A stretch of 46,400 nucleotides of DNA from Candidatus Saccharimonadales bacterium. GTDB lineage: Bacteria; Patescibacteriota; Saccharimonadia; Saccharimonadales; 2-12-FULL-41-12. Where the stretch lies: assembly GCA_036276695.1 (NCBI GenBank), contig DASUOI010000030.1:1-46400 (forward strand), given 5' to 3'. The translations under genes and the position numbers were made by a program. The notes beneath the pieces were generated by a model. The model was given only the letters and a program-made list of their open reading frames with translations, was not told the origin of the DNA and did not search any database. Shown piece after piece: positions 9,514 through 39,520 of the stretch; the first letter of the stretch is position 1; the number at the start of each line of letters is the position of its first letter.

Positions 9514-9602
9514 AATATACTCTTGCATTTTGTATTAATGCCCCGCAACTATAAAATATTATTTATGCTTATTACGGCCAGTCTATCTAGAAAGGAAAGT
9601 AC

Positions 9603-11429
9603 ATGTGCGGCATAATCGGTTATATCGGTAAGCAAGACACTGCCAAGGACTTCGTCATGGACGGCCTCCGCGCCTTGGAATACCGGGGTTACGACTCCGC
9701 CGGCTTAGCCATCCTCAACGACCAGGACCTTATCTTCAAGCAAAAAGGCCGGGTTGAAGCACTCGCGGATAACATTGCCGACTTTAAGATTAATTCATCA
9801 ATAGGTATCGGCCACACCCGCTGGGCGACCCACGGTTCGCCGACGGATGAAAATGCCCACCCCCACTTCAACAAAGAAAAGACTATTTTCGTAGTACACA
9901 ACGGTATCATCGAAAACTATAGGGAGATAAAAGAAAAACTATCCGCCGAAGGCTATGAGTTCCTGTCCGAGACCGATACGGAAGTCATCCCCCACCTGAT
10001 AGATTTCTACTTAAAGCAATCCGGCGATTTCGCCGCTGCTTTCTCAGCCGCTTTGAATGACCTGGAAGGAGCTTACGCCATATGCGCTATATATAAATCT
10101 CGTCCGGACGTAATGTACGCCGCCAGACTGTCCAGCCCCATCGTGGTGGGCGTTGGCGACGGAGAATATTTTGTAGCTTCAGACCCGAGCGCGCTTATCC
10201 ACAAGACCAAAAAAGTCATTTTCCTGAAAGATTATGAGATAGCCGAAATAACCAAAAATAAAGTCAAAGTCCACAACTTCAAAGAGTTCAGCAAAGCCGT
10301 CAGCGAAGTCGAAGAGCTGGATTACGACGCGGAAGAAACATCCTTAGGCAGATTCCCCAACTACATGCTAAAGGAAATCAACGAAGTCCCCAGCGCCATA
10401 GAAAACGCCATACGAGGACGCATAAAAGCAGATATAAGCACGGTGAAGCTAGGCGGGCTGGATGCCGTCCAGGAACAACTGGAGTTCATAGACCGCATTA
10501 ACATAGTAGCTTGCGGTACTTCCTACTACGCCGGGCTGGTGGGCGAATACCTTATAGAGGAAATCGCCAAGATACCGGTAGAAGTACAGCTAGCCAGTGA
10601 GTTCAAATACCGGCAGGAGCCCTTTTCCCGCGGGACGGCTATAATTGCCATTTCCCAATCCGGCGAAACTGCCGACACCATTTCCGCGCTCAAAAAAGTC
10701 GAAAACTATGGAATCTTAAAGCTAGGTATAGTAAATTCCGTCGGCTCAACAATTGCCCGCATTACAGACGCCGGAGTCTACTGCCACGCCGGACCGGAAC
10801 AATCCGTCGCCAGCACAAAAGCATTCATAGCCCAGGTAACTATCCTGTGTGAAATAGCCTTGAGCCTCTCCAAAGGCCAAAGCAAGCTGTACCAGCCCCT
10901 GCTGGAAGAGCTGGAGAAACTGCCTAAAAAGGCCGAGGCAGTCTTGGCTTTATCCGACGAAATCAAAACCTTAGCCAAAAAATATGCCAATAAGCGGGAT
11001 TTCCTTTACATCGGCCGGGGCTATCTATACCCCTGTGCGCTGGAAGGCGCTCTGAAGCTAAAGGAAATATCATACATCCACGCCGAAGGCTGCAGCGCCG
11101 GCGAGATGAAGCACGGCCCGCTAGCCATGATAGACGAAGACTTTCCGACGGTAGCCTTCACTTGCGACGGACCTTTATTAGAAAAAACTCTGTCTAACAT
11201 AGAAGAAATCAAAGCCAGAAAAGGCCCGGTCATAGCTTTTGCGACCGAAGGCAATAAAAAGATTAAAAGCCTAGCTGACGACGTAGTGTACCTACCAAAT
11301 ACCGTGGAACAGCTCCAGCCTATACTATCCGTGATTGCCGCCCAGCTTTTCGCCTACCATGTGGCTATGGAAAAGGGCTTGGACGTAGACCGGCCCCGCA
11401 ACCTCGCCAAATCCGTCACCGTCGAATAA
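9603..11429 (+). CDS. glmS: Glutamine--fructose-6-phosphate aminotransferase (isomerizing)
   Basis: 'MCGIIGY' N-terminal nucleophile, two SIS domains and the C-terminal 'PRNLAKSVTVE'. Length is 608 aa. Confidence 0.97.
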   Translation: MCGIIGYIGKQDTAKDFVMDGLRALEYRGYDSAGLAILNDQDLIFKQKGRVEALADNIADFKINSSIGIGHTRWATHGSPTDENAHPHFNKEKTIFVVHNGIIENYREIKEKLSAEGYEFLSETDTEVIPHLIDFYLKQSGDFAAAFSAALNDLEGAYAICAIYKSRPDVMYAARLSSPIVVGVGDGEYFVASDPSALIHKTKKVIFLKDYEIAEITKNKVKVHNFKEFSKAVSEVEELDYDAEETSLGRFPNYMLKEINEVPSAIENAIRGRIKADISTVKLGGLDAVQEQLEFIDRINIVACGTSYYAGLVGEYLIEEIAKIPVEVQLASEFKYRQEPFSRGTAIIAISQSGETADTISALKKVENYGILKLGIVNSVGSTIARITDAGVYCHAGPEQSVASTKAFIAQVTILCEIALSLSKGQSKLYQPLLEELEKLPKKAEAVLALSDEIKTLAKKYANKRDFLYIGRGYLYPCALEGALKLKEISYIHAEGCSAGEMKHGPLAMIDEDFPTVAFTCDGPLLEKTLSNIEEIKARKGPVIAFATEGNKKIKSLADDVVYLPNTVEQLQPILSVIAAQLFAYHVAMEKGLDVDRPRNLAKSVTVE

Positions 11430-11452: not shown

Positions 11453-12235
11453 ATGAAAGATTTGTTGGATGACGTTATTAAAATTGCCCGGGAAGCCGGA
11501 AAAGCCATCATTGAAATATATAATTCCGATGAGTTCGAGGTAGAAAATAAAGACGACAAAGGCTACATCTCCCCGCTGACCCAAGCCGACAAAGCTTCTC
11601 ACGAAGTCATCCAGGCAGGCTTATCAAACATCTCAGAGTACCCGATAATCTCCGAAGAAGGGGCGCAGGACTTCCAGACTGCGGACAAATTCTGGTTAGT
11701 TGACCCGATGGATGGTACTAAGGAGTTTATTAGCCGAAACGGCGAATTCACAGTAAATATTGCTCTGGTCGAAAACGGCCAGCCTGTATTAGGGGTGGTC
11801 TATGCACCGGCTTTAAATACCCTCTACGCTTCAGCGGACGGCAAAGCGTTTAAGATTGACTCTAGAGACAACAAAACAGAGCTAAAGCCTGACCCAAGCA
11901 AAAGAGACACACCTAAGATAGTGGTCAGCAGAAACCATAAAGGGGAGCAGCTAGCCGAAATCCTTAGCCAGTTCGGCCCGCATGAGGAAACAGACGTCGG
12001 CTCTTCACTAAAATTCTGTTATCTGGCTGAAGGCAAAGCCCAAGCATACCCCCGGTTCGTACCGACTTATCTTTGGGATACCGCGGCAGCAGACGCCGTG
12101 TTAAGAGCTACCGGCGGACAGATAAGAAGCCTGGACGGCAACAATCTGGTTTACGAACCCGGCGAGAATATAAAAAATCCGTTTTTTATAGCTACAGCAA
12201 GCGGCCAGGAATACTTGTTCGATAAATTCGTTTAG
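11453..12235 (+). CDS. cysQ: 3'(2'),5'-bisphosphate nucleotidase (PAP phosphatase)
   Basis: 'FWLVDPMDGTKEFISRNGEFTVNIALVENGQPVLGVVYAP' and 'GSSLKFCYLAEGKAQAYPRFVPTYLWDTAAADAV' closely follow the E. coli CysQ signature regions. Confidence 0.85.
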   Translation: MKDLLDDVIKIAREAGKAIIEIYNSDEFEVENKDDKGYISPLTQADKASHEVIQAGLSNISEYPIISEEGAQDFQTADKFWLVDPMDGTKEFISRNGEFTVNIALVENGQPVLGVVYAPALNTLYASADGKAFKIDSRDNKTELKPDPSKRDTPKIVVSRNHKGEQLAEILSQFGPHEETDVGSSLKFCYLAEGKAQAYPRFVPTYLWDTAAADAVLRATGGQIRSLDGNNLVYEPGENIKNPFFIATASGQEYLFDKFV

Positions 12236-13605
12236 CTTCGGCCCACGCCTATGAGCTCTAGTCCGGGTTGGGAAGCCTCGTTTGCGTCATAAATGTTCAT
12301 GCAGTCAACCAGCACATTACCGGCCATAGCTGTTTTTAGCTCAGCCAGGTTCATTGACTTAAACTCCGGCCAATCAGTAGCCACAAACACCGCATCAGCG
12401 CCTTTGACCGCGTCTGAAGACGACGAAACGACATTTACCGCATCAGACAAGTCTTCCTTCGCTTCATTATTTGCCTCCGGGTCATATGCGTTCACCACCG
12501 CGCCGGTTTCAGCCAAGATATTAGCAATGCCAACACCTGGGGATTTACGCGCGTCGCTGGTTCCGGCTTTGAACGAAAGCCCTAAGACCGCAATCTTCTT
12601 GTCTTTAAAATCGCCGATTTTGGAGCTAGTTTTGCTAACTATATATTCCGGCATTTGTTTGTTCAGCTCATCCGCCGCTTTCATTATCTGCAAGTCAACG
12701 CCGAATGACTGCGCACTGCTGATAAGACCTTTGACGTCTTTAGGGAAGCATCCGCCTCCATACCCGCGCCCGGCATTTAAAAACGCTCTGCCTATCCTTG
12801 GGTCTGCTCCGGTAGCGTACATAACTTCCTTCACATCCGCCTCCGTCTTATCCGCCAGCTGAGCAATTGAGTTAGCGAAAGATATCTTAAGCGCCAAGAA
12901 CGCGTTAGCAGTGACTTTTATAAGTTCCGCGCTGTCTAAGTTAGTCGCTATATACTCGCCCTTTATTTCCTTTGGTTTAAGACCTGCCAGCTCGGCGATT
13001 GCTTTTTGGTTTTCTTCAACATCCTTATACAGGCCTAGGACTTGCTCTACCGCCTGCTTGTCACTACCGCCTACTACTATCCGATCAAAAAACAGGGTAT
13101 CTAGCACCGCCGTGCCCTCACGCAAAAATTCAGGGTTGGAGGTGTAGGCTACATCTTTGTCTTTGAATACTTCTAGGACTTTCCTGCCTGTTCCTACTGG
13201 AACCGTGCTCTTTTGTATATAGATTGAACCAGGCTTTACGTGCTTGGCGCATTCCTCCGCCGCGGCAAAGACATAGTCCAGGTTGGAGCTTCCATCCGGC
13301 CTGTCCGGCGTCCCCACGCAAGAGAAAACGAACTTACTGTTTGAAACGGCCTCTTCATATGAAGCAGTCGGGATGAGGCTACCGCTGTCTACTGCGTTCT
13401 TTATGAGCGGGTTTATACCTTCTTCATAAAAAAACGACCTGCCCTCCCTTAGTGCCTGCAGGCGGTCATCGCTAATATCCAGCGCATAAACTTTATACCC
13501 GGCATTAGCTAAGATTGCCGAAGTAGTAACTCCGACGTAACCGGTGCCTAATACCGCAACGGTTTTTTGTTCATCAGCCTTAGGGCTCTCCCCGCTATTT
13601 TGCAT
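12232..13605 (-). CDS. ugd: UDP-glucose 6-dehydrogenase (nucleotide-sugar dehydrogenase family)
   Basis: N-terminal 'VAVLGTGYVGVTT' NAD-binding site and catalytic-Cys motif 'GYGGGCFPKDV'. Length is 457 aa. Confidence 0.88.
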   Translation of the reverse strand: MQNSGESPKADEQKTVAVLGTGYVGVTTSAILANAGYKVYALDISDDRLQALREGRSFFYEEGINPLIKNAVDSGSLIPTASYEEAVSNSKFVFSCVGTPDRPDGSSNLDYVFAAAEECAKHVKPGSIYIQKSTVPVGTGRKVLEVFKDKDVAYTSNPEFLREGTAVLDTLFFDRIVVGGSDKQAVEQVLGLYKDVEENQKAIAELAGLKPKEIKGEYIATNLDSAELIKVTANAFLALKISFANSIAQLADKTEADVKEVMYATGADPRIGRAFLNAGRGYGGGCFPKDVKGLISSAQSFGVDLQIMKAADELNKQMPEYIVSKTSSKIGDFKDKKIAVLGLSFKAGTSDARKSPGVGIANILAETGAVVNAYDPEANNEAKEDLSDAVNVVSSSSDAVKGADAVFVATDWPEFKSMNLAELKTAMAGNVLVDCMNIYDANEASQPGLELIGVGRS

Positions 13606-13633
13606 GATTATATATTCAATGAATCCTGTGTAT

Positions 13634-14179
13634 TTAGCAAGCTTTGGGTGCCCACAGGCCTATTTCATTCTTTTTGGCTTCAGCTTGGGCTTGCCTGAAC
13701 TCAGCCTGCAAGTCGTATGGTTCTATAAAAGTAAATTCCTGCGCATAACCTTCGGCTATCATCAGTCGGTTTAAGTTTGTGTCGTCTTCTAAAACTACAT
13801 ACCTAAGCAACCGCCCGTAAATATCCCGGTTGTCCTGGCTGTTGTCAACCTCCAGCTTGATTTGTTGCCCCGCCAAGGCCCTTTGGGCTCTGGACTTAGC
13901 TTCGCGGGCAAAACAGTCATCCGGCAGTTCTGGCGCGTCGATGCCTATCAGCCGTATTGATTCAACTTTGCCGTCCATGACCGCCTTTATGGTGTCGCCG
14001 TCTACTACGCTCTCAACCAGATAATATCCGGGGTCAACAGTAGCGTTTGTCGGACGGCCTTGCGGTCTTTCATACTTTGTAAGCAATATGATTCCAGCGA
14101 CTGCCGTAAGGCAAACTAGCAAAATTATAATCAGGCTTAGCTTAGCGGTGTTTTTTCTAGGTGTTATAATGCTTATCAT
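13634..14179 (-). CDS. Membrane-anchored or secreted thermonuclease (staphylococcal-nuclease/SNase fold)
   Basis: N-terminal TM helix, then 'VVDGDTIKAV...IRLIGIDAPE' and 'DRYGRLLRYV'-like 'DIYGRLLRYVVLED', followed by 'LMIAEGYA'. Confidence 0.8.
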   Translation of the reverse strand: MISIITPRKNTAKLSLIIILLVCLTAVAGIILLTKYERPQGRPTNATVDPGYYLVESVVDGDTIKAVMDGKVESIRLIGIDAPELPDDCFAREAKSRAQRALAGQQIKLEVDNSQDNRDIYGRLLRYVVLEDDTNLNRLMIAEGYAQEFTFIEPYDLQAEFRQAQAEAKKNEIGLWAPKAC

Positions 14180-14236
14180 TATACTAATTTAGATATGTTC
14201 TAGATAAAATAAAAAGTTAACAAAAGGAGAATACAA

Positions 14237-14554
14237 ATGGAAGCTGTTTTAATATTTGGTGCCTTAGGTGGTGTAGCAAGGGGGCTTGTCGGCTACCTGA
14301 AGCATTTTCAAGCCTACAAAAGCGTTAAGTTCGAGTGGAAATACTTTGGCATGGCAGTCGGCATATCCGCCGCTGTCGGCTTGGCGGTAGTCTGGTCTAT
14401 CGTTGATTCAGGTATTACCTTTGCCGAAGGCGTGGAAGTCAACGCCGGGCTAGCCATGATAATAGGCTATGCCGGCGGGGATGCTATAGAGAATTTATAT
14501 AAGATTATCTTAAAAAAGCCGGTACTAGGAACTTTCGGGGCTAAAAGGAAATAA
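14237..14554 (+). CDS. Small hydrophobic protein (about 3 TM helices), unknown function
   Basis: ATG preceded by AGGAG. The sequence is Gly/Ala-rich and hydrophobic with a basic C-terminus. I recognise no family. Confidence 0.4.
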   Translation: MEAVLIFGALGGVARGLVGYLKHFQAYKSVKFEWKYFGMAVGISAAVGLAVVWSIVDSGITFAEGVEVNAGLAMIIGYAGGDAIENLYKIILKKPVLGTFGAKRK

Positions 14555-14555
14555 A

Positions 14556-15419
14556 TCAGTTCTTGGCTACTTCCAGCAAATACTTGCCGTAGCCGGATTT
14601 TTTAAGCGGTTCAGCCAGTTTCAACAGCTGGGCTTTGTCAATGAAGCCCTGCTGGTAAGCGATTTCTTCAATACAGCCTATTTTCAAGCCTTGGCGCTGC
14701 TCTATGACTTGAACATATTGGGCTGCTTGATTCATGCTGACAAAAGTCCCCGTATCAAGCCAGGCGGTGCCTCTATCAAGCAGAACGACATTCAGTTTGC
14801 CCTTTCTTAGGTAGGCATTGTGAATCTCGGTTATTTCAATCTCGCCCCTTGCGCTGGGTTTTACGGATTTAGCTATATCAACCACGTCATTATCGAAGAA
14901 ATAAAGGCCCGGAATCGCATAGTGGGATTTAGGGTCGCTTGGCTTTTCTTCAATTGACTTAACATTGTTATTTGAATCAAATTCAACCACGCCATAGCGT
15001 TTCGGGTCGGAAACCGGATAGCCGAAAATTACTCCTCCGTCAGGGTCGGAAGCAGCCTGTAGTTTCAGCTCAAGGTCAGAGCCATAGAAAATATTATCTC
15101 CTAGTACCATGGCTACCTTCTCACCGTTGATAAAGTCCGCGCCCACTATGAACGCATCTGCCAGTCCGCGGGGTTCATCCTGGACCTTGTACGTAAAATT
15201 ACAGCCTATTTGCTCTCCGCTGCCCAGTAATTGTTCGAATCTAGGCAAATCCTGGGCTGTGGAGATAATTAATATATCTTTGATTCCAGCGCTCATCAAA
15301 GTGCTGAGCGGATAGTAAATCATGGGCTTGTCATAAATAGGAATAAGCTGTTTGCTGACTGCCAGTGTTATGGGATACAGGCGCGTACCGCTTCCGCCTG
15401 CTAATATTATTCCCTTCAT
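14556..15419 (-). CDS. rfbA: Glucose-1-phosphate thymidylyltransferase
   Basis: '[35 protein letters not shown]' is the canonical RmlA N-terminus. ATGA overlap with rmlD. Confidence 0.96.
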
Positions 15420-16272
15420 TTTTTACGCTCCTTCTCAATATATTTTACTAGATCGTCCTGCCAGCTTGGCGGATTAAACCCTGTGCTCTTGATTTTACTA
15501 AGGTCAAACGCACTGTTTAACGGTCTGGGCGCCGCGTCTTTTTTAGAGACGAAATATTCTTCCGTGGTTATGTCGTTAACTACCAAGTCTTTTCTGTCTA
15601 GGACTTCGAAGATAGTTCTGGTAACTTCAGCCCAGCTTGCCGGCGGACCGTCATTGCTGACGTTATAGATGCCATAAGCCTCCTTACGACTTAGCAGATG
15701 GTCGATAGCCTGCACCACGGTAGAAGTAAAAGTCAGCCGGCCGACTTGGTCGCTTACTACTTTGGGCGAGATGTTTTTTTCGGCTAGGCCCATCATCGTT
15801 TTGACGAAGTTCGGCCCATTACCGATAAGCCACGATGTACGCAAGATATAGTGTTTGCCGGCTGTGGCTATAGCTACATCGCCCGCGGCTTTGCTCTGGG
15901 CGTAAACCCCTAGGGGCGAAAGCGCCTCATCTTCAGCGTGTTCTTTTTCCTGCCCGTCAAAAACATATTCCGTAGAGACATGAACTATGGTGATGTCATT
16001 CTTATCAGCTATCTTAGCTAGAAGCCCCGCTGAACTGGCGTTTATAAGCCAGGCTAATTTGCGTCCCTCGCTGGTCTCGGCCTCGTCAACATTGGTATAT
16101 GCTGCGGCATTGATGATAATCTCTACATCCGACCAGTCAAACTCACTCAGCTGTTTTGCATCAGTTATATCCAGCTCGTTTTTATCAACAGCTTTAGCTT
16201 TAGGGTATTTTGACTGTAGCTCCGAGCCGAGCTGGCCATTAGCGCCGATTATCAATATTTTTGACTGGTCCA

Positions 16273-16273
<1 letters not shown>
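15416..16273 (-). CDS. rfbD: dTDP-4-dehydrorhamnose reductase
   Basis: '[11 protein letters not shown]' Rossmann motif, 'AAYTNVD', and 'STEYVFDG' with 'YAQSKAAGD' (YxxxK). The ATG at 16273 abuts the rmlC TGA. Confidence 0.92.
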
Positions 16274-18359
<2,086 letters not shown>

Positions 18360-19251: not shown

Positions 19252-20883
19252 TCAGCTTTGAGCCTCAAGGTAGCCTTCGCTCTCTAGGTGTAGGACTATC
19301 TGGTTGGCTAACTCGTCAACATCATATTTCTGCGTGTCCAAAGTAATGTCCGCGTCAGCCGGTTCTTCATACGGGTCGGATATGCCAGTGAAGTGTTTTA
19401 TCTTTCCTGCTCTTGCCGCTTTATATAACCCTTTTCTATCGCGCCTTTCACACTCTTCTAACGAAGTATCTACATGCACCAGCAGAAAGCCTCCACCGAC
19501 TGACTGGATAGTTTGTTTTATTTCTTTTCTGACCTTGTCATACGGCGCAATCGGCGCGCATATGGCTATCCCGCCATGTTTGGATATCTCGCTGGCCACA
19601 TAGCCTATCCTGCGCACATTGATATCCCGATCTTTTTTAGAAAATCCTAATTCGCTGGATAAATTCTTACGCACTACATCCCCGTCCAGCAAGGTAACTG
19701 TGCGACGTCCCAGCTCCATCAGCTTGACCATCACGGCATTGGCTACCGTAGACTTGCCGGCCCCAGAAAGACCGGTGAAGAACACTGTGAAGCCTTTCTC
19801 ATATCTTGGTTTATGTGTCTTTTGTAGTTCTACCGCTACTTCCGGATAAGTAAACCAGCTCGGCAGGCCCTTGCCGTCTGAAAGCAAGGCTCTCAGTTCT
19901 GTTCCTGATAGGCTCATAGGCTCCATGCCCTCTGGCACTTCTTCTATAGGCATGTATCTCTCAAGCTCTCTTACGTAAACCATCATCTTAAACGGCACCA
20001 CTTCAACGCCGACTTCCTTGCTGTATTTTTCTGCCAATTGCTGAGCGTCATATGGGCCGTAAAAATCCTCGCCCTTAGAGTTTTTGCCCGGTCCGGCATG
20101 GTCACGCCCAACTATAAAGTGAGTCACTCCATAATTTTTGCGAATTATCATATGCCATAGCGCCTCCCTTGGCCCGCCCATGCGCATAGCTAACGGGAGC
20201 AGGGATATCATGGCCGTACCCTGCGGGAACTTTTTTATAACTTCTTGGTAGACCCTCACTCGGGTGTAGTGGTCCACATCTCCCGGTTTGGTCATGCCGA
20301 CGACCGGGTGTATAAGCAAGCTTGCCTCCGTTTGTTTTGACGCCCGTAGAGCCAGCTCTACGTGCGCCCTGTGCATAGGATTCCTTGTCTGAAAGGCAAC
20401 TATTTTTGTCCACCCCATTTTCTTAAAGTGCTCTTTTAGCTGTTTAGGAGTGTAGCGGTGTTCGGTAAAGTCATAATGCGTAGGTAGCTCTTTAGCTTCC
20501 AGCTTCCCGCCTACGTAATACTCCCCGGCTTTATTCTTCATGTAGTACACGGCTGGGTGGGCTTCGTCATCTGCTCCAAATACTTGTTCGGCTTCTTTGG
20601 ATTTATCCGGCTTCCACACATCTCCAACCGTCAGGATTGCTAGAACTATCCCTTCTTGGTCACGCAGTTCTACTTTATCGTTCTTTTTTAGGGACTTGGC
20701 TGTTTGCACGTTTACGTCAAGTGTTATCGGCATCGGCCAGAGCTTGCCGCTTTTAAGCCGCATATCTTTACAGACGGATTCATAATCTTCTTTGTTCAAA
20801 AAACCTTCCAACGGTGCAAACCCTCCGTTGGTTATCATTTCAACATCACAAATTTGTCTAGGCGTTAAACTGATTTCTTTCAC
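19252..20883 (-). CDS. Bifunctional sulfate adenylyltransferase / adenylylsulfate kinase (PAPS synthase, Sat-CysC fusion)
   Basis: GTG start with AGGAG upstream. ATP-sulfurylase motifs are 'FQTRNPMHRAHVEL', 'HPVVGMTKPGDVDH' and 'IVGRDHAGPG'. The C-terminal APS kinase has the P-loop 'FFTGLSGAGKSTVA' and 'LDGDVVRKNLSSELGFSKKDRDINVRRIGYVA'. Confidence 0.92.
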   Translation of the reverse strand: MKEISLTPRQICDVEMITNGGFAPLEGFLNKEDYESVCKDMRLKSGKLWPMPITLDVNVQTAKSLKKNDKVELRDQEGIVLAILTVGDVWKPDKSKEAEQVFGADDEAHPAVYYMKNKAGEYYVGGKLEAKELPTHYDFTEHRYTPKQLKEHFKKMGWTKIVAFQTRNPMHRAHVELALRASKQTEASLLIHPVVGMTKPGDVDHYTRVRVYQEVIKKFPQGTAMISLLPLAMRMGGPREALWHMIIRKNYGVTHFIVGRDHAGPGKNSKGEDFYGPYDAQQLAEKYSKEVGVEVVPFKMMVYVRELERYMPIEEVPEGMEPMSLSGTELRALLSDGKGLPSWFTYPEVAVELQKTHKPRYEKGFTVFFTGLSGAGKSTVANAVMVKLMELGRRTVTLLDGDVVRKNLSSELGFSKKDRDINVRRIGYVASEISKHGGIAICAPIAPYDKVRKEIKQTIQSVGGGFLLVHVDTSLEECERRDRKGLYKAARAGKIKHFTGISDPYEEPADADITLDTQKYDVDELANQIVLHLESEGYLEAQS

Positions 20884-20933
20884 GTTTCTCCTTTATTATC
20901 AGTAAACAATTATATACTGTAAAATACATTGTG

Positions 20934-21875
20934 ATGAAACTCTTTGTTCAAATACCCTGTCTTAATGAGGAAGACACTCTTCCCGATGTTTTAGAAACCA
21001 TACCAATAAAAATAGGCGGGATAGATTCCATAGATATTCTAATCATTGATGATGGGTCAACTGATAAAACTATAGAAATCGCTAAAAAACATGGCGTAAA
21101 GCACTTTGTAATGCACAGGAAGAATCAAGGTTTAGCCAAATCATTTTCCGATGGATTGGATTATTGTTTATCTCACGGTGCAGACATTATTGTTAATACT
21201 GACGGCGATAACCAATACCCCCAACAAGACATCCCAAAATTAGTCCAGCCTATACTAGATAAAAAAGCTGAAATCGTAATAGCCGACAGGCAAACAGACA
21301 AAATTGAACACTTTTCTCCTATCAAAAAATTCTTTCAGAAGTTTGGCAGCTGGGTGGTCAACAAAGCGGCTGGCACAAACCTTCCGGACGCAGCCAGCGG
21401 TTTCCGGGCTTATTCTAAAGAAGCGGCAGTACGAATTAATGTAATCACGACTTTCAGCTACTGCATGGAGACCATTATTCATGCCGGCAACAAGCGCATC
21501 CCGATAGAAAGCGTCAAGATAATTACCAACCCAAAAACTCGGGAGTCTCGCCTGTTTAAAAATATGTGGCAGCATATGTATAAATCCGGGTTGGCTATAA
21601 TCCGAAGCTTCACCATGCACAAGCCTTATGTAATTTTTATGAATTTAGGCTTAGTACTATTTGTTTTGGGCTTAATCCCGTTTATTCGCTACGGAGTTAT
21701 TTATATCTCCGGAGACAGAGGTGAACATATTCAATCTTTGATACTGGGCGTAATACTCTTATTTGCCGCAATGATATCTTTTGCTCTCGGTATAATTGCT
21801 GATTTAATAAGAACAAACAGGATATTGATAGAGGACACCCTAGAAAGAACCAAAAAAATCCAACACAAAAAATAG
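20934..21875 (+). CDS. GT2 polyprenyl-phosphate glycosyltransferase (GtrB/ArnC/Dpm1-like) with 2 C-terminal TM helices
   Basis: 'VQIPCLNEEDTL', 'IIDDGSTDKT' and 'NTDGDNQYP' (DxD) are present, with two hydrophobic helices at the C-terminus. An alternative GTG start lies at 20931. Confidence 0.8.
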   Translation: MKLFVQIPCLNEEDTLPDVLETIPIKIGGIDSIDILIIDDGSTDKTIEIAKKHGVKHFVMHRKNQGLAKSFSDGLDYCLSHGADIIVNTDGDNQYPQQDIPKLVQPILDKKAEIVIADRQTDKIEHFSPIKKFFQKFGSWVVNKAAGTNLPDAASGFRAYSKEAAVRINVITTFSYCMETIIHAGNKRIPIESVKIITNPKTRESRLFKNMWQHMYKSGLAIIRSFTMHKPYVIFMNLGLVLFVLGLIPFIRYGVIYISGDRGEHIQSLILGVILLFAAMISFALGIIADLIRTNRILIEDTLERTKKIQHKK

Positions 21876-21911: not shown

Positions 21912-23129
21912 CTAAGACTTGGAAACGATTGTTTCAACTTGGCGGGAAGCGCTTTTTTTGACTGCGGGTAGATGTTTTTTTATAGCGGTGCTAATTTTCT
22001 GCTGGTCTTTAGATACATTTTCGAATGCTGCGTGCAAGGCTTTTTGATCAAGATTTTTAGAATCAAGCGCTGACTCTTTAAGACCGAACATGTCCATAAT
22101 TTCAGCGTATTTATGACTCCAGCCCAACACTAGCGGGGGCGTTCTCATACTAAGTGCTGCTATCATGGCATGGAAGCGTGATGTTACGGCTATATCGGCC
22201 TTTCCGATAATATGTCGGAGTTGCTGGGCTGAGAGCTCATCGTCAATGAAGGTAAAGTTTTTGTTATCTATACCTTTGGAAATATCCCGGCAGACAGGTA
22301 AATCGTTATTGTGCCGGGAATCACGGCCTTTACGTGCGCTATAGGCCATCAATAATACTTTATAGTCGCGCTCTAGAAGATATTTTATAAAGTCTCGGTT
22401 GTAACCTATATAATCTTCACCGCTCTTTTCAGTTTTCTTGCGAATCACTTCACTGGGCATAACAACAGCTGTCTTATGTTTTAAATCAAAATTGAATCCG
22501 TTTTGCTTGATGATTTGTTCAGCATGTTTTGCTTCTTCCTTGCTAGTTTCCATTAAAAAAGCGTAGTCGGTAGATTCTATGACATTCTTTAAGCCTAACT
22601 CCTTTAGATGCTTATAAGTCTGAGCGCCGCGGGCACAGATGGTGTCCACGTGTGGCAAGAGTAACTTAGCCGTAAATTTGTTTATCCAGGTATTGAACGG
22701 CCCCATGGCTTGGGAACATTTAATAACTCTGGTATTAGTAAAGATTCCCGGCAATATGGTTGCCACATTATAGATTAAAAATTTGGCCCGCCCGTCAACA
22801 AACGTTATACCGCCCTCATCCAGTAATACGTCAGCTTCAGCTAATGCTCTTATGTGCTTTTGTCGGCGGAGCAAAGGCCTTAGCGGTGGCAGAATCTTAT
22901 AAAGTAAAGCAAGCGGGTTTAGAACAAGTCCTAAGAATAACGGCTTTGCTGAGAGCAACTCAACCTTTTTATAATTATTGAATCTTCTATCATCCTCAGG
23001 ATATACGGTAAAGACAGAAAAAGTTGTCTTTGGGTCTTTAGCTGTTATCGTCTGGATAGACGCCTCCAGCATGGAGGCAGCACCCTTATTACCGGAAAAA
23101 GTAGAGCCGATTATTGCTATTTTCCTCAC
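21912..23129 (-). CDS. Polysaccharide pyruvyl transferase family protein (WcaK/CsaB-like)
   Basis: 'IAIIGSTFSGNKGAASMLE' is the N-terminus. 'VTSRFHAMIAALSMRTPPLVLGWSHKY' is the conserved C-terminal motif of PS_pyruv_trans. The GTG start overlaps the upstream TGA (GTGA). Confidence 0.8.
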   Translation of the reverse strand: MRKIAIIGSTFSGNKGAASMLEASIQTITAKDPKTTFSVFTVYPEDDRRFNNYKKVELLSAKPLFLGLVLNPLALLYKILPPLRPLLRRQKHIRALAEADVLLDEGGITFVDGRAKFLIYNVATILPGIFTNTRVIKCSQAMGPFNTWINKFTAKLLLPHVDTICARGAQTYKHLKELGLKNVIESTDYAFLMETSKEEAKHAEQIIKQNGFNFDLKHKTAVVMPSEVIRKKTEKSGEDYIGYNRDFIKYLLERDYKVLLMAYSARKGRDSRHNNDLPVCRDISKGIDNKNFTFIDDELSAQQLRHIIGKADIAVTSRFHAMIAALSMRTPPLVLGWSHKYAEIMDMFGLKESALDSKNLDQKALHAAFENVSKDQQKISTAIKKHLPAVKKSASRQVETIVSKS

Positions 23130-24061
23130 GTAGTATTACCTTCCGTACGCTTGAGCAGCAAATAAACTACGGCGGCTAAAATATCCGCTATTGTAGCGTA
23201 AAACCTGCTTACTATAGCTAAAATTACAGCTTGTTCTACGGGTATGTATGCGCTGGCAAACAAAACTATTACGGCTTCTCTTACGCCAAGACCGCTTGGA
23301 ACAAATATGGCCAGGACACCGACTATTCCTGCTAACACATAGAGAGAGCCAAAAACTATATATTGCGAAGCTGATATGTTGATCAGTGATTCAGCCACAA
23401 ATACAAACGCGGCACCGTTTATGATCCGGGGAATAATGAACAAAAGAAAGTATTTGATATTATCTTTGCTGTTTAACATCTCCTGTTGGCTTAGCTTTTG
23501 TTTTTTAGCCAGCTTAAAGAAAAAGTTTATAGCTTTAGTAAAAAACCAAGGGCTTAAAACAATAGCTACGAATGGTATGGATGCCAAAAGTGGAAGGAAT
23601 AAAGTTCCTCCTTCGCTGAATTTATTGCCTAAGGCAATAAACAAAATAGGAATGGTCGGTACTGTGGAAGCTAAAAGTAAGAATACATTTTCATAAACAA
23701 ACGAGGCTGTTATTTTTTTGCCATCAAGCTTTCTCTGTCTGCCCCAGGCAATTTTATTAATCAGCGAGCCAGCTTGTCCTGGTATATATTTTAGTAGCCA
23801 CGAAGCCAAATGCACCCTTATTGCTTCTCTAATTGGTATCTGGGCTTTGGTTAGCTTATCAACTATTTTCCCCCATAGTATTCCGGAAGATACTATTGAT
23901 AACACATACAAAATAACCGCTATAACTATTAAAAGATCCGGTTTTAAGCTAACCTCGCCTAGGTTGTTCCAGTTATTTTGCAAAGTTTTAGCAAAGAAGA
24001 ATATGACAACTGCCACTATAGCCCACGAAAAGAGCGTTTTATACAGTTTCAAGTATTTCAT
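23126..24061 (-). CDS. Flippase-like membrane protein (LPG_synthase_TM / UPF0104, MprF-flippase-domain family)
   Basis: 311 aa with about 8 TM helices. 'IPGQAGSLINKI' and 'FVPSGLGVREAVIVL' match the conserved P-x-G-G-x-G-x-RE signature. ATGA overlap with the nitroreductase gene. Confidence 0.65.
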   Translation of the reverse strand: MKYLKLYKTLFSWAIVAVVIFFFAKTLQNNWNNLGEVSLKPDLLIVIAVILYVLSIVSSGILWGKIVDKLTKAQIPIREAIRVHLASWLLKYIPGQAGSLINKIAWGRQRKLDGKKITASFVYENVFLLLASTVPTIPILFIALGNKFSEGGTLFLPLLASIPFVAIVLSPWFFTKAINFFFKLAKKQKLSQQEMLNSKDNIKYFLLFIIPRIINGAAFVFVAESLINISASQYIVFGSLYVLAGIVGVLAIFVPSGLGVREAVIVLFASAYIPVEQAVILAIVSRFYATIADILAAVVYLLLKRTEGNTT

Positions 24062-25143
24062 TTACCTATTTTGTTATAGGTTCTCAGCACATCCAAAGAT
24101 TTCTTTTGGGAATAAGCCACATACCCTTCCGGATCTGCATAACCTAAAGCTATCAACATAATCGGTCTTTCGTCCGGTGATAAACCTAATGTTTTTTGCA
24201 TCTTTGCTTCAAGGGGTTCAAAATCTGGCCAGTTTATTGAGCTTGAAGCCAGCCCTAGCGTCTCAAGCGCGTACATAAAAGGCATAACGGACAAAGCTGA
24301 ATCCACGTATATTAAATGTCTATCCCTTGGGCTAAAGTAATTCTCCTGCTTGCCTACAACCACTATGATCGTAGGTATATTGTCTCTATACCCAGCAGCG
24401 CCGAAAGGTATGGCGGCAACCTTCTTAACAAGTTTTGGGTCATCATATATTTTAAATTCGTAAGGCAGTCGATTGCAGGCCGACGGTGACTGTTCGGCTA
24501 CTAACAAGGCTTTATCTATAAGTTCTCTGGGTACCGGTTTTTGTTTGAACCATCGTACCGAGCGTCTTTGGTGCGATAACTCTAATAAGTCTTCATATTT
24601 AATCGGACTTTTTGGGTTTCCTCTTTTATAAGGCTTCTTGTCTATATCTTTGGGGGCAAAATCAATTTTTTTAAATTGATCGTGCAGTTTACTTATTGCT
24701 TTATCTTCATCTGAAACCTTTGAAAAGTATTCAGTCAATACATTTTGGGCCCATATAAGTTCGCTAATATCTACGCCGCTGTCATCATTCTTATAATCCC
24801 TGAGTGCCTTTTCATAAAACTCCACGGTTTCACCTATGTAGTCTTTAGCAAAAACCTTTCTTCTGGGTCGCATCAGCAAACCCTTTTCCAAGCGATGCGT
24901 GTTACGGCGGAGTTCGGAGCGGCTTTTTCTTTGCTTGTTCAGATTCTTATAATAATTTTTTCGTCCGTGTAAAACTGCGTATTGCTCCCGCGAAAAGCTA
25001 AAGAATCCAACCCAATGATACACAACGCTTGATAAGCGGCTGAAGCTGCCTAGTCGGGTAATAAATAAAGACAAAGCCTCATACGTTTTTCGTATCAGCT
25101 TTATAGACAACAGAAATACTACGAGTTTCTTGAGTTTTTTCAT
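24058..25143 (-). CDS. Nitroreductase-family flavoprotein with a ~170-aa N-terminal extension
   Basis: 'RRSVRWFKQKPVPRELIDKALLVAEQSPSACNRLPYEF' is the typical FMN nitroreductase N-terminal motif. I chose the ATG at 25143 ('MKKLKKLVVFLL'); the ORF extends to 25239. Confidence 0.7.
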   Translation of the reverse strand: MKKLKKLVVFLLSIKLIRKTYEALSLFITRLGSFSRLSSVVYHWVGFFSFSREQYAVLHGRKNYYKNLNKQRKSRSELRRNTHRLEKGLLMRPRRKVFAKDYIGETVEFYEKALRDYKNDDSGVDISELIWAQNVLTEYFSKVSDEDKAISKLHDQFKKIDFAPKDIDKKPYKRGNPKSPIKYEDLLELSHQRRSVRWFKQKPVPRELIDKALLVAEQSPSACNRLPYEFKIYDDPKLVKKVAAIPFGAAGYRDNIPTIIVVVGKQENYFSPRDRHLIYVDSALSVMPFMYALETLGLASSSINWPDFEPLEAKMQKTLGLSPDERPIMLIALGYADPEGYVAYSQKKSLDVLRTYNKIGK

Positions 25144-25268
25144 ATTACTATGTTGATTAATTATATCAGTTAGGCTTGATCTAGATACTAATTCTTGTTT
25201 TTGGTTGGTTGGTTTATAATAGCGCTGTAATAGAAGCAAGCTGGGATATAGAATTTTAATACTGTTAT

Positions 25269-26075
25269 ATGGGTTTTAGATTTCAAAAAAAATCAAAAGA
25301 TAGTAAGCAAGCACAGGCGCCGATTATTATTTATGGCCCGCCTCGTTCCGGTACCACATATCTGGGAGAAATAGTCAGCCAGCATCCGGAAGTATTCATC
25401 TCCAATGAATATCGAATTTTCACTTGGCTGCACCAATCAACTCATGTTTTGCCCGACATTGACGATATGGTCCTACACTCCCGCAAAGGATTCAAAAAAT
25501 TTATAGATAAAGAAGTGCCCCCTTTGATAAGAAAGTTTTATGCACAAAAACATCCGCACATTAAATACTGGGGCGATAAAAACCCTTTCTACGGAGGAGA
25601 CATCGGGCGGCTTAGAACCATTGCCGAATATTTTCCCGATGCAAAATTCATTAATATTGTTCGCGACGGCCGGGATGTCGTGACTTCGTTAATGAATAAA
25701 AAATGGGAAGACGGCCGACCTTGGGCAGATTTCGACACGGCCCACCAAGTCTGGAACAGCAACATAAAAAACGGACTGGAATTTGCTAAAGAAGCTAAAA
25801 AGAAAAACCATTATCTTATTAAATATGAAGATTTGGTTAAAGATGATTTAAGCGAAGCTAAAAAAATCTTTAAATTTCTAGAGATAGATTGGCGCAAACC
25901 TGTTGAAAAATACTGCCTTCAGCAACAAAAAGAACGAACTATTGTGAGCAAGCCTGTAAGGGACATCCGTAAAGATGCTGGCGCCTCCCTGTGGGCAGAT
26001 AAACTTACAAAAACCCAGCAAAAAAAGAGTATGTCTTTACTAAAAGAGAATCTGAAGAACCTAAAATACTTGTAA
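25269..26075 (+). CDS. PAPS-dependent sulfotransferase
   Basis: 5'-PSB loop 'IIIYGPPRSGTTYLGE' and 3'-PB motif 'INIVRDGRDVVTSL'. Length is 268 aa. Confidence 0.8.
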   Translation: MGFRFQKKSKDSKQAQAPIIIYGPPRSGTTYLGEIVSQHPEVFISNEYRIFTWLHQSTHVLPDIDDMVLHSRKGFKKFIDKEVPPLIRKFYAQKHPHIKYWGDKNPFYGGDIGRLRTIAEYFPDAKFINIVRDGRDVVTSLMNKKWEDGRPWADFDTAHQVWNSNIKNGLEFAKEAKKKNHYLIKYEDLVKDDLSEAKKIFKFLEIDWRKPVEKYCLQQQKERTIVSKPVRDIRKDAGASLWADKLTKTQQKKSMSLLKENLKNLKYL

Positions 26076-26107
26076 GCAGGATATATAAAAATGTTAGAGT
26101 TATTGCA

Positions 26108-28252
26108 GTGAAATCAGGAAAATTCTCCAGTTTATTTTGGACAATAGTCGGCGGCGTGCCCTTGGCCATACCCGTAGGGATGGCGATCTTCGGAGTAATT
26201 TTAACCGCTTTGCTTCTTGCCCATAATTTTTCCAGCTTATGGATATTTATACTTTCCTCCCTGTTTATAATCCCCGCTATTGTTTATATTTTTAAAATTT
26301 ACGACCACTCAGGGCCCGGCACACAAACCGAGAAAAATCTTTTTAATATTTTAGTCATTATATTCGCCCTTGGGTGGGTTATCTTTAATGCTCAATTCGT
26401 TTCTCAGAACGTTTTTATAGATAGGGACCCGGGATTTTATAACGTAGCCGGCAAATGGCTGGTAGATCATGATTCTACTGATGTTAATGTCGAAATGGTG
26501 TTCGGCAAGAACGAACGTCTGTCTGCCCAAGAAGGCGGCATGTGGTTAAAAGCCGGGCAAGATCTTTCAGGTGATTCGCAAATCATACAGCCGCAGGGTA
26601 TGCATTTGTTTTCAGCGATATTGGGCGTAGCCGGGCGAATTGCTGGCGACCAAGCACTTTTAAGAGCAAACGTGGTTATAGGCGGTATGGCCCTGCTGGC
26701 GTTTTACGGATTTGCCAGGCTGGTAATACGCCCGAGATGGGCTATGCTCGCCACTGCCGTACTTGGGTTCTCCATGCCTATGATTTACTTTTCCAGGGAC
26801 ACTTATACAGAACCGCTGGCGCTGTTATTCGCTTCCGGGGGGCTAGCTTTATTCTTAACAGCTTATAAAAAGCTCCCGGGTGTTAATAAATTTCTATGGA
26901 TAATGTCGGGCTTGTCGGCAGGTGCTACCGGCCTGGCTAGAGCAGACGGCTTTTTTGTATTGATAGCCTGTGTATTGTTTATCGTATTGGCATTATTCCT
27001 TAGAAGAAAGATACAGAAATCTCTTATCCAATCCGGCGCTTTGTTTATGTTCGGAGCGCTAATATCCATTGTGGTCGCTTGGCTGGATATAACAAGACTC
27101 ACTACCGCGTACTACAACGGCCACGGTTCTGAGGTTAGATACCAGCTGCTGCTGTTGGGAATTATTATTATTTTTGGCGGGCTGGCTTATGCCTTAAGAA
27201 AATACATTTACAAATTATTTGCCTCCAGCACTTTTAAAAAAATTAATAACCCCTTGCTTGTCTCAAGCGCTCTATTTGCAGGATTTATAGCTATTGTTAC
27301 AAGACCTTTTTGGATGCGGGAGGTTTCGTTTTTAAAACCATTTACTTACGGTAAATACAGCACGAATCATTCGGTCAGCGTGGTACAGGAAAAACAGGGT
27401 ATTCCTATAGAGCCAAGGAACTACTCTGAAACTACCGTAGATTGGATAGAGTGGTACATAGGCGGCGCGTTGCTTGCTTTGGCTATAGTCGGCCTGATCC
27501 TAATGATATATCGGGTTTATAACAAAAAAAGGTTCGAGTATTTACCAATCTTGATATTAGGGATAATGACATCAACGCTTTTCTTCATCTATCCAAGTAT
27601 AACTGCAGACCATATATGGGCGGACCGGCGATTCCTGCCAATAATAATCCCTATTTTTATCATTGCCGGGTTTTTTGCCGTCAGTGAAATTTTTGATTTC
27701 TTCATGTCTAAGCTCTCAAAACTACATACGGTTTTGATATTTCTTGCCGTAGGTCTATTCCTGGTAATTCCTCCTTTGAAAACTTCAAAGCCACTATTAA
27801 TAAGAGCCGAGAGGAATCAAAATTATGCCGCGGTTGATAAATTTTGCTCTGAGCTGCCAAAAGATTCCGCTGTTTTGTGGCTTGATAGAGGCACTCTAGG
27901 CTTAGCCGCCGTACAGACTACTAGGTCTTATTGCGAAGCTGAGGCCATAGGTTATACGTACAAAAAGAACGGGGAAAATAATAACGACCGTTATATCATC
28001 AAAAAAAGTGATCTTAAATCAGCTTATCAAGAAGCTAAAAAGCGCGGCCTAACTCCGATTATAGTTATGCAGGGCGACAGGAAGATTGAAGTTGAAAAAA
28101 ACATATCCGGAAATCTTACCACGGTAGCAACCACAGCTAACAATATTTTAGAAAGATCTTTGCTCCATCCGCCCACCTATATGCAGATAGAACATAACTC
28201 TATTTTAGTGGGCTACATAAACAGCGACGGAACCGTAAGTCCTCTTTATTAA
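26108..28252 (+). CDS. Large polytopic membrane protein, GT-C-fold glycosyltransferase-like (ArnT/PMT/YfhO-like), with a C-terminal extracytoplasmic domain
   Basis: 714 aa with at least 12 TM helices. The first extracytoplasmic loop has an acidic motif, 'FIDRDPGFYNVAGKWL'. The soluble C-terminal ~130 aa follow. The GTG start is uncertain. Confidence 0.5.
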   Translation: MKSGKFSSLFWTIVGGVPLAIPVGMAIFGVILTALLLAHNFSSLWIFILSSLFIIPAIVYIFKIYDHSGPGTQTEKNLFNILVIIFALGWVIFNAQFVSQNVFIDRDPGFYNVAGKWLVDHDSTDVNVEMVFGKNERLSAQEGGMWLKAGQDLSGDSQIIQPQGMHLFSAILGVAGRIAGDQALLRANVVIGGMALLAFYGFARLVIRPRWAMLATAVLGFSMPMIYFSRDTYTEPLALLFASGGLALFLTAYKKLPGVNKFLWIMSGLSAGATGLARADGFFVLIACVLFIVLALFLRRKIQKSLIQSGALFMFGALISIVVAWLDITRLTTAYYNGHGSEVRYQLLLLGIIIIFGGLAYALRKYIYKLFASSTFKKINNPLLVSSALFAGFIAIVTRPFWMREVSFLKPFTYGKYSTNHSVSVVQEKQGIPIEPRNYSETTVDWIEWYIGGALLALAIVGLILMIYRVYNKKRFEYLPILILGIMTSTLFFIYPSITADHIWADRRFLPIIIPIFIIAGFFAVSEIFDFFMSKLSKLHTVLIFLAVGLFLVIPPLKTSKPLLIRAERNQNYAAVDKFCSELPKDSAVLWLDRGTLGLAAVQTTRSYCEAEAIGYTYKKNGENNNDRYIIKKSDLKSAYQEAKKRGLTPIIVMQGDRKIEVEKNISGNLTTVATTANNILERSLLHPPTYMQIEHNSILVGYINSDGTVSPLY

Positions 28253-28314
28253 ATTACCTGTTTACTTTTTTGACAATAAATGTTATAGTGAAAGAGTTAA
28301 GCACAAAAACAAAA

Positions 28315-28857
28315 ATGTCAAAAACAAAAATAATAATACTATCGATTGTAGCCCTAGCTCTCTTAGGCGGAGGGGTGGCGGCTTATTACTATAGATATGT
28401 TGATAAAGATAAAGCCGAAACTGCAGACACGACGCATAATGATAATATCAATTACTCTCCTCCGACAGAGCAGGAAAAAAAGGAAACCGAAGAACATAAA
28501 AAATCCCTTGCAGAAGATAAGGCTCCAACAAATAATCCTACCGGCAATAGTCCAAGTACCAAGAAAAGTGTAACACCAGTCATAGTCTCTTACGGACAGG
28601 CTTCCGGTAATGTGGAGGTAAGCGCTAGAGTTCCGGGAGTCATTGAGTCAAACGGCACCTGTAAATTAACTTTAACTAAAGGTTCCGACAGCGTATCCCA
28701 AAGCAAGAAAGCCACGCCTAACGCCTCTGATACCAGCTGCGGATTTATATCCATACCGCGCAGTAAGTTAAGTTCTGGTTCATGGTCAGCTAAAGTCAGT
28801 TATTCTTCTTCTAAGGCAGAGGGGGTATCGGCCGCCAAAACGATAAAGGTACAATAA
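28315..28857 (+). CDS. Membrane-anchored extracytoplasmic protein with an S/T/P/K-rich linker and a beta-rich 2-Cys C-terminal domain; unknown function
   Basis: The ATG at 28315 gives 'MSKTKIIILSIVALALLGGGVAAYYY' (signal anchor). The linker is 'SPPTEQEKKETEE...APTNNPTGNSPSTKKSVTP'. I recognise no family. Confidence 0.5.
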   Translation: MSKTKIIILSIVALALLGGGVAAYYYRYVDKDKAETADTTHNDNINYSPPTEQEKKETEEHKKSLAEDKAPTNNPTGNSPSTKKSVTPVIVSYGQASGNVEVSARVPGVIESNGTCKLTLTKGSDSVSQSKKATPNASDTSCGFISIPRSKLSSGSWSAKVSYSSSKAEGVSAAKTIKVQ

Positions 28858-28861
28858 GCAT

Positions 28862-30574: not shown

Positions 30575-30619
30575 ATTAGTTTTAGGCTTTAGTTCTAAAA
30601 CTATATTATTATAGATCAG

Positions 30620-33637: not shown

Positions 33638-33699
33638 TTTTGTATAACCTTACTTATTATACAAATATGTAGACGGCATAGAAAATTTATAAAGGGGTT

Positions 33700-34626: not shown

Positions 34627-34632
34627 AAGTTA

Positions 34633-35463: not shown

Positions 35464-35505
35464 CTAAGTTAGGGATAGATACGATTATATTATTCCTATC
35501 TTTTT

Positions 35506-36366: not shown

Positions 36367-36415
36367 ATATTAATCTTCAAGTCTGAAATTTATCGATTCT
36401 TCCTTATGCGGTCTA

Positions 36416-37288: not shown

Positions 37289-37301
37289 TATTGCTGCTTT
37301 T

Positions 37302-39519: not shown

Positions 39520-39520
39520 A

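Follow-up and report, generated by a model that had tools for sequence, protein, structure and literature searches.

Why would an epibiont with a reduced genome keep an enzyme that makes 3′-phosphoadenosine 5′-phosphosulfate (PAPS)? The question is raised by a 46,400-nt stretch of DNA from a Candidatus Saccharimonadales bacterium (assembly GCA_036276695.1, contig DASUOI010000030.1, positions 1 to 46,400), here called the window, which encodes sat-cysC, a gene for a fused ATP sulfurylase and adenosine 5′-phosphosulfate (APS) kinase. Saccharibacteria are obligate epibionts, and the PAPS pathway costs ATP. An initial annotation, made from the sequence, proposed that PAPS is produced in this organism as a sulfuryl donor. 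We find this reading well supported, both by an intact kinase domain and by the linkage of sat-cysC to cysQ and sulfotransferase genes across relatives, and we infer that the PAPS is not reduced to sulfite. The explanation that we favor as a whole, and regard as probable, is that the enzyme is a PAPS synthase for the cytoplasmic sulfotransferases of an envelope glycan locus, with CysQ clearing the by-product 3′-phosphoadenosine 5′-phosphate (PAP).

Domains and catalytic motifs of the fused enzyme

The gene, the three domains of its product, and a promoter-like site in front of it are placed as follows.

19252 to 20883, minus strand: sat-cysC, fused ATP sulfurylase/APS kinase (PAPS synthase), 543 amino acids, GTG start
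20494 to 20883, minus strand: PUA-like N-terminal domain, residues 1 to 130 (Pfam PUA_2, PF14306, matched from profile position 28)
19819 to 20460, minus strand: ATP sulfurylase catalytic domain, residues 142 to 355 (PF01747, E = 6e-83)
19336 to 19797, minus strand: APS kinase domain, residues 363 to 516 (PF01583, E = 4e-58)
20895 to 20923, minus strand: promoter-like site TTTACA-17-GATAAT in the 47-bp divergent spacer, upstream of AAGGAG and the GTG

Against NCBIfam NF004040 ([quoted passage not shown]), the product reaches 875 bits and clears the curated equivalog cutoff of 669, which places it in this Aquifex-type family. As an enzyme, it is unremarkable and typical of an established family; the names that NCBI gives in Saccharibacteria records are already correct. 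As a bifunctional enzyme, it would convert sulfate and ATP to APS and then APS and ATP to PAPS.

The initial annotation had judged both domains catalytically intact, and the motifs bear this out. Present in the sulfurylase are QTRNPMHRAH (residues 165 to 174, with H171-R-A-H174), HPVVGMTKPGDVD, MRMGGPREALWH, and VGRDHAGPG (residues 258 to 266, with G259-R-D-H-A-G264); the active-site set QTRNPxHRxH, HPxxGxxKxxD, GRDHAG, and MRMxGPxE is found in full. The kinase domain has the P-loop GLSGAGKST (residues 371 to 379, G371-LSGAGKS-T379), LLDGD (residues 398 to 402, with D400-G-D402 followed by R405), R419, N422, and R425, GFSKKDRDINVRRIG, RKGLYK (the KGLY lid), and FTG, and it matches the motif set of P-loop GxxGxGKS/T, DGD, FSxxDRxxNxRR, and KGLY lid. 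When 119 homologs (66 to 92% identity) were aligned, the sulfurylase core residues Q165 to H171, H174, and G259 to G266 were present in all 119, and the key residues of the kinase were invariant.

Could one of the two domains nevertheless be noncatalytic, either a PAPS-binding, regulatory kinase-like domain of the fungal kind or a dead sulfurylase like that of Thiobacillus denitrificans? The top full-length match in the PDB is indeed fungal, the ATP sulfurylase of Penicillium chrysogenum (1I2D; 686 bits, residues 3 to 542), which ranks above the Aquifex enzyme (2GKS; 587 bits, residues 1 to 539) and whose C-terminal domain is a regulatory, noncatalytic relic. The kinase domain also reads APIAPY, as does the fungal regulatory domain, and not SPY as in Aquifex. 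However, 1I2D has a degenerate P-loop (GYMNSGKD) and has lost the first Asp of DGD (LLLGD), whereas GLSGAGKST and LLDGD in the window protein are canonical and do not vary among the homologs. The kinase domain alone is best matched, at 242 bits, by that of the T. denitrificans two-domain enzyme (3CR8), which is catalytically active and which shares the CAPIAPY variant; the 3CR8 alignment is good mainly over residues 121 to 541 and best over the kinase domain. A fungal-type regulatory domain, a candidate prompted by the top PDB match, was therefore rejected on the intact P-loop and DGD and the 3CR8 kinase match. A T. denitrificans-type dead sulfurylase was likewise rejected on the intact QTRNPxHRAH, GRDHAG, and other sulfurylase motifs, with their invariant core. 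We regard a noncatalytic domain as highly improbable. Judged by its motifs, the product is of neither the fungal nor the Thiobacillus type and should make PAPS.

The N terminus of the protein is short, lacking about 31 residues that most Saccharibacteria homologs have. Since the matches to NF004040 and PUA_2 begin only near position 30, a truncation or frameshift was suspected, and this was rejected. We consider the short form real because an AAGGAG Shine-Dalgarno sequence lies just 5′ of the GTG, together with the promoter-like site, because the closest homologs are short as well, and because the start is the same in Aquifex, with residue 1 aligning with residue 7 of 2GKS. The promoter-like site is a consensus match only, of a kind no commoner in the region than in its shuffles. 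About 70 of the 119 homologs carry some 30 to 33 extra N-terminal residues; the window protein and its nearest relatives are among 18 sequences that carry 8 or fewer.

GC content was also considered as a sign of horizontal acquisition of sat-cysC and gave no signal, the gene having about 0.44 to 0.46, the same as the conserved flank. The higher score of fungal 1I2D than of Aquifex, seen beside about 60 to 64% identity to copies in Rhodobacteraceae and Spiribacter, suggests that the fusion clade, which would include the ancestor of the fungal enzyme, evolves slowly or has spread horizontally.

Linkage to cysQ and sulfotransferase genes in relatives

Three further genes of the window bear directly on what the PAPS is for.

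11453 to 12235, plus strand: cysQ, 3′(2′),5′-bisphosphate nucleotidase (PAP phosphatase), TIGR01331 at 266.6 bits (cutoff, 228.8)
25269 to 26075, plus strand: sulfotransferase 1, PAPS dependent, Sulfotransfer_3 (PF13469, E = 1e-29)
36416 to 37288, minus strand: sulfotransferase 2, PAPS dependent, Sulfotransfer_3 (PF13469, E = 4e-36)

These are the genes that the initial annotation had named as CysQ and two sulfotransferases of the same locus, and the family matches agree with it: CysQ, 7.0 kb from sat-cysC, passes its cutoff, and both sulfotransferases carry PAPS-binding motifs, namely, a 5′-PSB motif (PRSGTT or PRSGTS; GPPRSGTT in sulfotransferase 1) and the 3′-PB motif VRDGRD.

The named close homologs of the sat-cysC product all come from Candidatus Saccharibacteria or Saccharimonadia, bar one record labeled Nomurabacteria. 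Its best genome matches are metagenome-assembled genomes of Saccharimonadales (80 to 84% identity), and the identical protein is encoded on a 9.5-kb Logan contig from run SRR25158519. A homolog scan limited to one genome per species gave 63 loci. We compared 21 Saccharibacteria loci, 15 of them with full 10-kb flanks, with 44 proteobacterial loci that have the same fusion at 51 to 64% identity. Sulfotransferases of the relatives were counted with a hidden Markov model seeded from Pfam-annotated neighbors, which replaced single-sequence phmmer searches with the window sulfotransferases after these missed most of them.

In 19 of the 21 Saccharibacteria loci (13 of the 15 with full flanks), cysQ and sat-cysC are no more than 2 kb apart; the median gap, taken over the cysQ cluster, is 4 bp. 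A sulfotransferase gene lies within 10 kb in 13 of 15 loci, a count restricted to those with full flanks because the flanks of the others are short. Among the 44 proteobacterial loci, by contrast, a sulfotransferase within 10 kb and a cysQ within 2 kb were each found once, and the neighbor families sampled were mostly housekeeping ones, including SSB, UvrA, a TrxB-like oxidoreductase, and Lrp. The linkage of sat-cysC, cysQ, and sulfotransferase genes is therefore specific to the Saccharibacteria lineage and not attributable to the fusion protein family. Genes for PAPS synthesis are thus linked to those for PAPS-dependent sulfotransferases, as in dedicated glycoconjugate sulfation, and PAP removal by CysQ is linked to the same system.

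The same arrangement is seen in five near-complete genomes whose homologs are 73 to 82% identical; one is a 778-kb chromosome and another measures 1.13 Mb. The CysQ gene (Inositol_P) directly follows sat-cysC in four of them and is about 1.8 kb away in the fifth (L007); a sulfotransferase gene and an LPG_synthase_TM gene lie 1 to 7 kb upstream of sat-cysC. UDP-glucose dehydrogenase (UGDH), rml, and glycosyltransferase genes surround these in four, the flanks of L004 being mostly unannotated. At L007, YafQ-like and ParE-like toxin genes (12133 to 13353), one with an adjoining RHH-domain gene, separate sat-cysC from cysQ. Complete genomes with the module include OY970356.1 (778 kb), CP060232.1 (1.13 Mb), GCA_034680565.1, and GCA_034521515.1.

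Over the Saccharibacteria loci, the recurrent neighbors are UGDH, the glycosyltransferase families GT2 and GT4, LPG_synthase_TM, RmlA to RmlD, a Wzx flippase, and a DUF2142-like membrane protein. A member of the LPG_synthase_TM family is found near sat-cysC in 10 related loci (median distance, 53 bp), an ortholog of the window GT2 gene at 20931 to 21875 is near it in 15 loci, and a pyruvyl transferase gene adjoins it also in L018 and L007. In four Saccharibacteria genomes (L007, 14270 to 16030; L017; L066; and L068), a DASS transporter gene (CitMHS, two TrkA_C, and Na_sulph_symp) adjoins cysQ or sat-cysC and is a possible sulfate importer for the module. A Paceibacteria locus (L069) places a 51%-identical sat-cysC by genes for an NKWYS “capsular polysaccharide synthesis” protein and an FkbM methyltransferase (7499 to 8359 and 9135 to 9950) and has no cysQ; it hints that glycan-linked PAPS supply may reach other classes of the candidate phyla radiation (CPR).

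The glycan locus, the fate of PAPS, and the sulfate acceptor

The window is occupied largely by an envelope glycan locus, which extends from about 6.4 to about 43.8 kb. The features of it that matter most for sat-cysC are listed here, with one gene that lies among them.

12232 to 18056, minus strand: sugar-donor supply genes, with UDP-glucose dehydrogenase at 12232 to 13605 and rmlA, rmlD, rmlC, and rmlB at 14556 to 18056
13634 to 14179: unrelated open reading frame (ORF) for an SNase-family nuclease, between the UDP-glucose dehydrogenase and rml genes
20931 to 21875, plus strand: GT2 enzyme resembling polyprenyl-phosphate sugar synthases (AglJ/PpgS/PgfS/ArnC-like; PF00535, with weak NCBIfam matches, all below cutoff), divergent from sat-cysC
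21912 to 23129, minus strand: polysaccharide pyruvyl transferase (PF04230, E = 5e-36)
23126 to 24061, minus strand: LPG_synthase_TM membrane protein, a relative of the MprF transmembrane region taken as flippase-like (PF03706, E = 3e-18)
37302 to 40318, minus strand: DegT-type sugar aminotransferase and Wzt/Wzm (TagH-like) glycan export ABC transporter, upstream of sulfotransferase 2

Besides these and a second pyruvyl transferase, the locus encodes an initiating Bac_transf enzyme, GT4 and further GT2 enzymes, GlmS, a PMM-like HAD phosphatase, and a Wzy_C protein. The position of sat-cysC is among the genes for activated-precursor supply. Sulfotransferase 2 is part of a same-strand run, wzm-wzt-degT-sulfotransferase 2-GT2, directly 3′ of degT, wzt, and wzm and 5′ of the GT2 gene; sulfotransferase 1 comes after GT2, pyruvyl transferase, LPG_synthase_TM, and nitroreductase-like genes.

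We propose that sat-cysC is part of the precursor supply of this locus, together with glmS, ugd, rmlABCD, and the PMM-like phosphatase gene. The cytoplasmic PAPS-dependent sulfotransferases of the same locus would use the PAPS to sulfate a glycan or lipid-linked glycan intermediate, and CysQ would hydrolyze the PAP released. The sulfated product would then be exported by the Wzm/Wzt ABC transporter, by flippase-like membrane proteins, or by both. The acceptor that we infer, from gene context alone, is an envelope glycoconjugate.

The first steps of assimilatory reduction are also encoded by sat and cysC, and the PAPS might instead go by way of CysH-type and sulfite reductases encoded elsewhere to sulfide for cysteine. 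He et al. (2021; PMC7906910) and a second study (PMC10413278) present sat and cysC of CPR bacteria or of Saccharibacteria as capacity for sulfate reduction, and our data from this genome are limited to a 46-kb window. Yet neither PAPS/APS reductase, sulfite reductase, cysteine synthase, nor a sulfate transporter was matched in a scan of 48 window ORFs (drawn from the list of ORFs of at least 120 amino acids), which agrees with the remark of the initial annotation that no cysH, cysI, cysJ, or sulfate transporter gene is visible there. The two reductases and cysteine synthase were likewise missing from the precomputed Pfam annotations within 10 kb of sat-cysC in the five near-complete genomes and from the annotated neighbor clusters of the Saccharibacteria loci; the exception loci that we inspected (L016, L013, and L069) also lack sulfur-assimilation genes. 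Instead, sat-cysC is tightly linked with cysQ, sulfotransferase, and glycan genes, and the proteobacterial copies, which are probably assimilatory, have no such linkage. Sulfur assimilation is an unlikely purpose for the gene also because Saccharibacteria are reported to be generally without de novo amino-acid pathways (PMC10633639; similarly PMC3812714). Taken together, we find assimilatory reduction quite unlikely.

The identity of the acceptor is a separate matter, and here the PAPS could be a sulfuryl donor for something other than a glycan: a tyrosine of a secreted or surface protein (as with RaxST or tyrosylprotein sulfotransferase [TPST]), a scavenged lipid, or a small-molecule signal. 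Because the best-matching solved sulfotransferases are TPST and CurM, sulfate could be transferred to a protein, to a lipid, or to a small molecule. Sulfotransferase 1 matches TPST1/2 and the sulfotransferase domain of a polyketide synthase (4GOX) in the PDB, and sulfotransferase 2 matches the CurM sulfotransferase and TPST. In addition, the membrane protein conserved beside sat-cysC, from the family of the MprF flippase region, would suit a sulfated lipid as well. These structural matches, however, are weak (47 to 63 bits) and mostly cover the PAPS-binding core, whereas the window sulfotransferases sit within runs of glycosyltransferase, aminotransferase, and glycan-exporter genes and that of the relatives is flanked by GT2/GT4 and UGDH/rml genes. 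We therefore think a nonglycan acceptor unlikely.

Several observations do weigh against sulfation of an envelope glycan. None of the closest solved structures of the window sulfotransferases is a carbohydrate enzyme, weak as those scores are. The window sulfotransferases are only distantly similar to the type conserved beside sat-cysC in relatives, and the window cysQ is unusually far from sat-cysC (7 kb), whereas it is typically adjacent in relatives. No sulfotransferase was found within 10 kb at two Saccharibacteria loci (L016 and L018). The window has no sulfate transporter, a tblastn search of it for DASS having found none, and it covers only 46 kb of a genome estimated at 0.7 to 1.1 Mb. 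With these points counted, sulfation by the glycan locus stays our favored explanation. To a broader proposal, we give about even credence: that many Saccharibacteria, for all their extreme genome reduction, have conserved a dedicated module which combines Sat-CysC and CysQ with a sulfotransferase, an MprF-like membrane protein, and, in some genomes, DASS and which sulfates a rhamnose/uronic-acid surface glycopolymer or a lipid-linked glycan.

Other features of the locus deserve mention. GC content is about 0.46 to 0.49 in the conserved flanks (which include sat-cysC, rml, and cysQ) and 0.32 to 0.42 across 22000 to 40000, with its minimum at 36001 to 38000. The low-GC part houses both sulfotransferases, GT2 genes, and wzm/wzt, and it resembles a variable, exchangeable glycan cassette. 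A GT4 glycosyltransferase gene (31588 to 32796, plus strand) is split by one in-frame TAG at 32374 to 32376, with an A8 run two bases on; its N-terminal Glyco_transf_4 and C-terminal Glycos_transf_1 halves share a frame. A pseudogene, phase variation, or a misassembly could account for the split. Three successive ORFs at 26108 to 30574 (plus strand; 714, 195, and 570 amino acids) are without a family match in Pfam or NCBIfam. The 714- and 570-amino-acid proteins have homologs that recur in relatives' glycan loci, and these ORFs may encode membrane glycosyltransferases or polymerases. Genes for a pyruvyl transferase and a nitroreductase-family protein of 360 to 390 amino acids recur close together by sat-cysC (window, 21912 to 25239, minus strand; L007, 3628 to 5984; and L018). 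The window copy of the latter has two nitroreductase stretches, and the LPG_synthase_TM gene lies between the two genes there.

Comparison with known sulfation systems

A dedicated PAPS supply with sulfotransferases for glycoconjugates is a known kind of system, NodPQ/NodH being an example. A conserved sulfation module in CPR bacteria appears new; our literature search found no description of sulfation in Saccharibacteria, Patescibacteria, or CPR, where sat and cysC, if mentioned, have been interpreted as sulfate reduction in the two studies cited above. The gene context argues for sulfation and so corrects the habit of counting these genes as capacity for sulfate reduction. If this is right, sat/cysC counts for CPR bacteria in biogeochemical surveys do not stand for sulfate reduction, and the CPR epibiont envelope would have an undescribed feature, a sulfated and strongly anionic surface, that could matter for attachment to actinobacterial hosts. 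To our knowledge, the surface chemistry of Saccharibacteria is almost unknown. Because so ATP-costly a pathway is kept in a genome of about 1 Mb without amino-acid synthesis, the sulfated product is probably important to the cell. A lineage-wide module would be a testable lead on CPR surface chemistry and, should it yield a surface glycan or lipid, would offer something concrete to investigate.

As an enzyme, the window protein is like the Aquifex aeolicus SAT/APS kinase (2GKS) in its architecture, with the same order of PUA-like, ATP sulfurylase, and C-terminal APS kinase domains, the same short N terminus, and all catalytic motifs. It differs in coming from a CPR bacterium, in having APIAPY where Aquifex has VSPY, and in being set in a glycan/sulfotransferase locus with cysQ. 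The P. chrysogenum ATP sulfurylase (1I2D/1M8P) is the top-scoring solved homolog and shares the domain order, but its kinase-like domain has the degenerate P-loop and LLLGD described above in place of GLSGAGKST and LLDGD.

As a system, the locus is like rhizobial NodPQ with NodH (and with NoeE and LpsS), which act on Nod factors and surface polysaccharides: in both, a dedicated PAPS supply is linked to sulfotransferases of the PF13469 type, which in the window would likewise act on glycoconjugates. The glycolipid sulfotransferase NodH belongs to that family (PMC11625862). The likeness does not extend to the sulfurylase itself, since NodPQ is a GTPase-coupled enzyme of the CysD/CysN-CysC type, whereas the window enzyme is a homo-oligomeric fusion of the Sat type. 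Here the acceptor is predicted from gene context, and sulfotransferase 2 resembles NoeE weakly (38 bits, far below the cutoff of 500).

A further parallel comes from the sulfated capsular polysaccharide and exopolysaccharide clusters of marine bacteria and cyanobacteria (capsules of Vibrio and Cobetia; xss for synechan), in which, according to the sources (PMC11641403, PMC11766843, and PMC13125312), sulfotransferase genes are embedded within clusters for polysaccharide synthesis and export, as they are embedded in glycan genes here. Those hosts have full sulfur assimilation, whereas the window belongs to a lineage of epibionts with reduced genomes in which the PAPS synthase and cysQ lie inside the conserved module.

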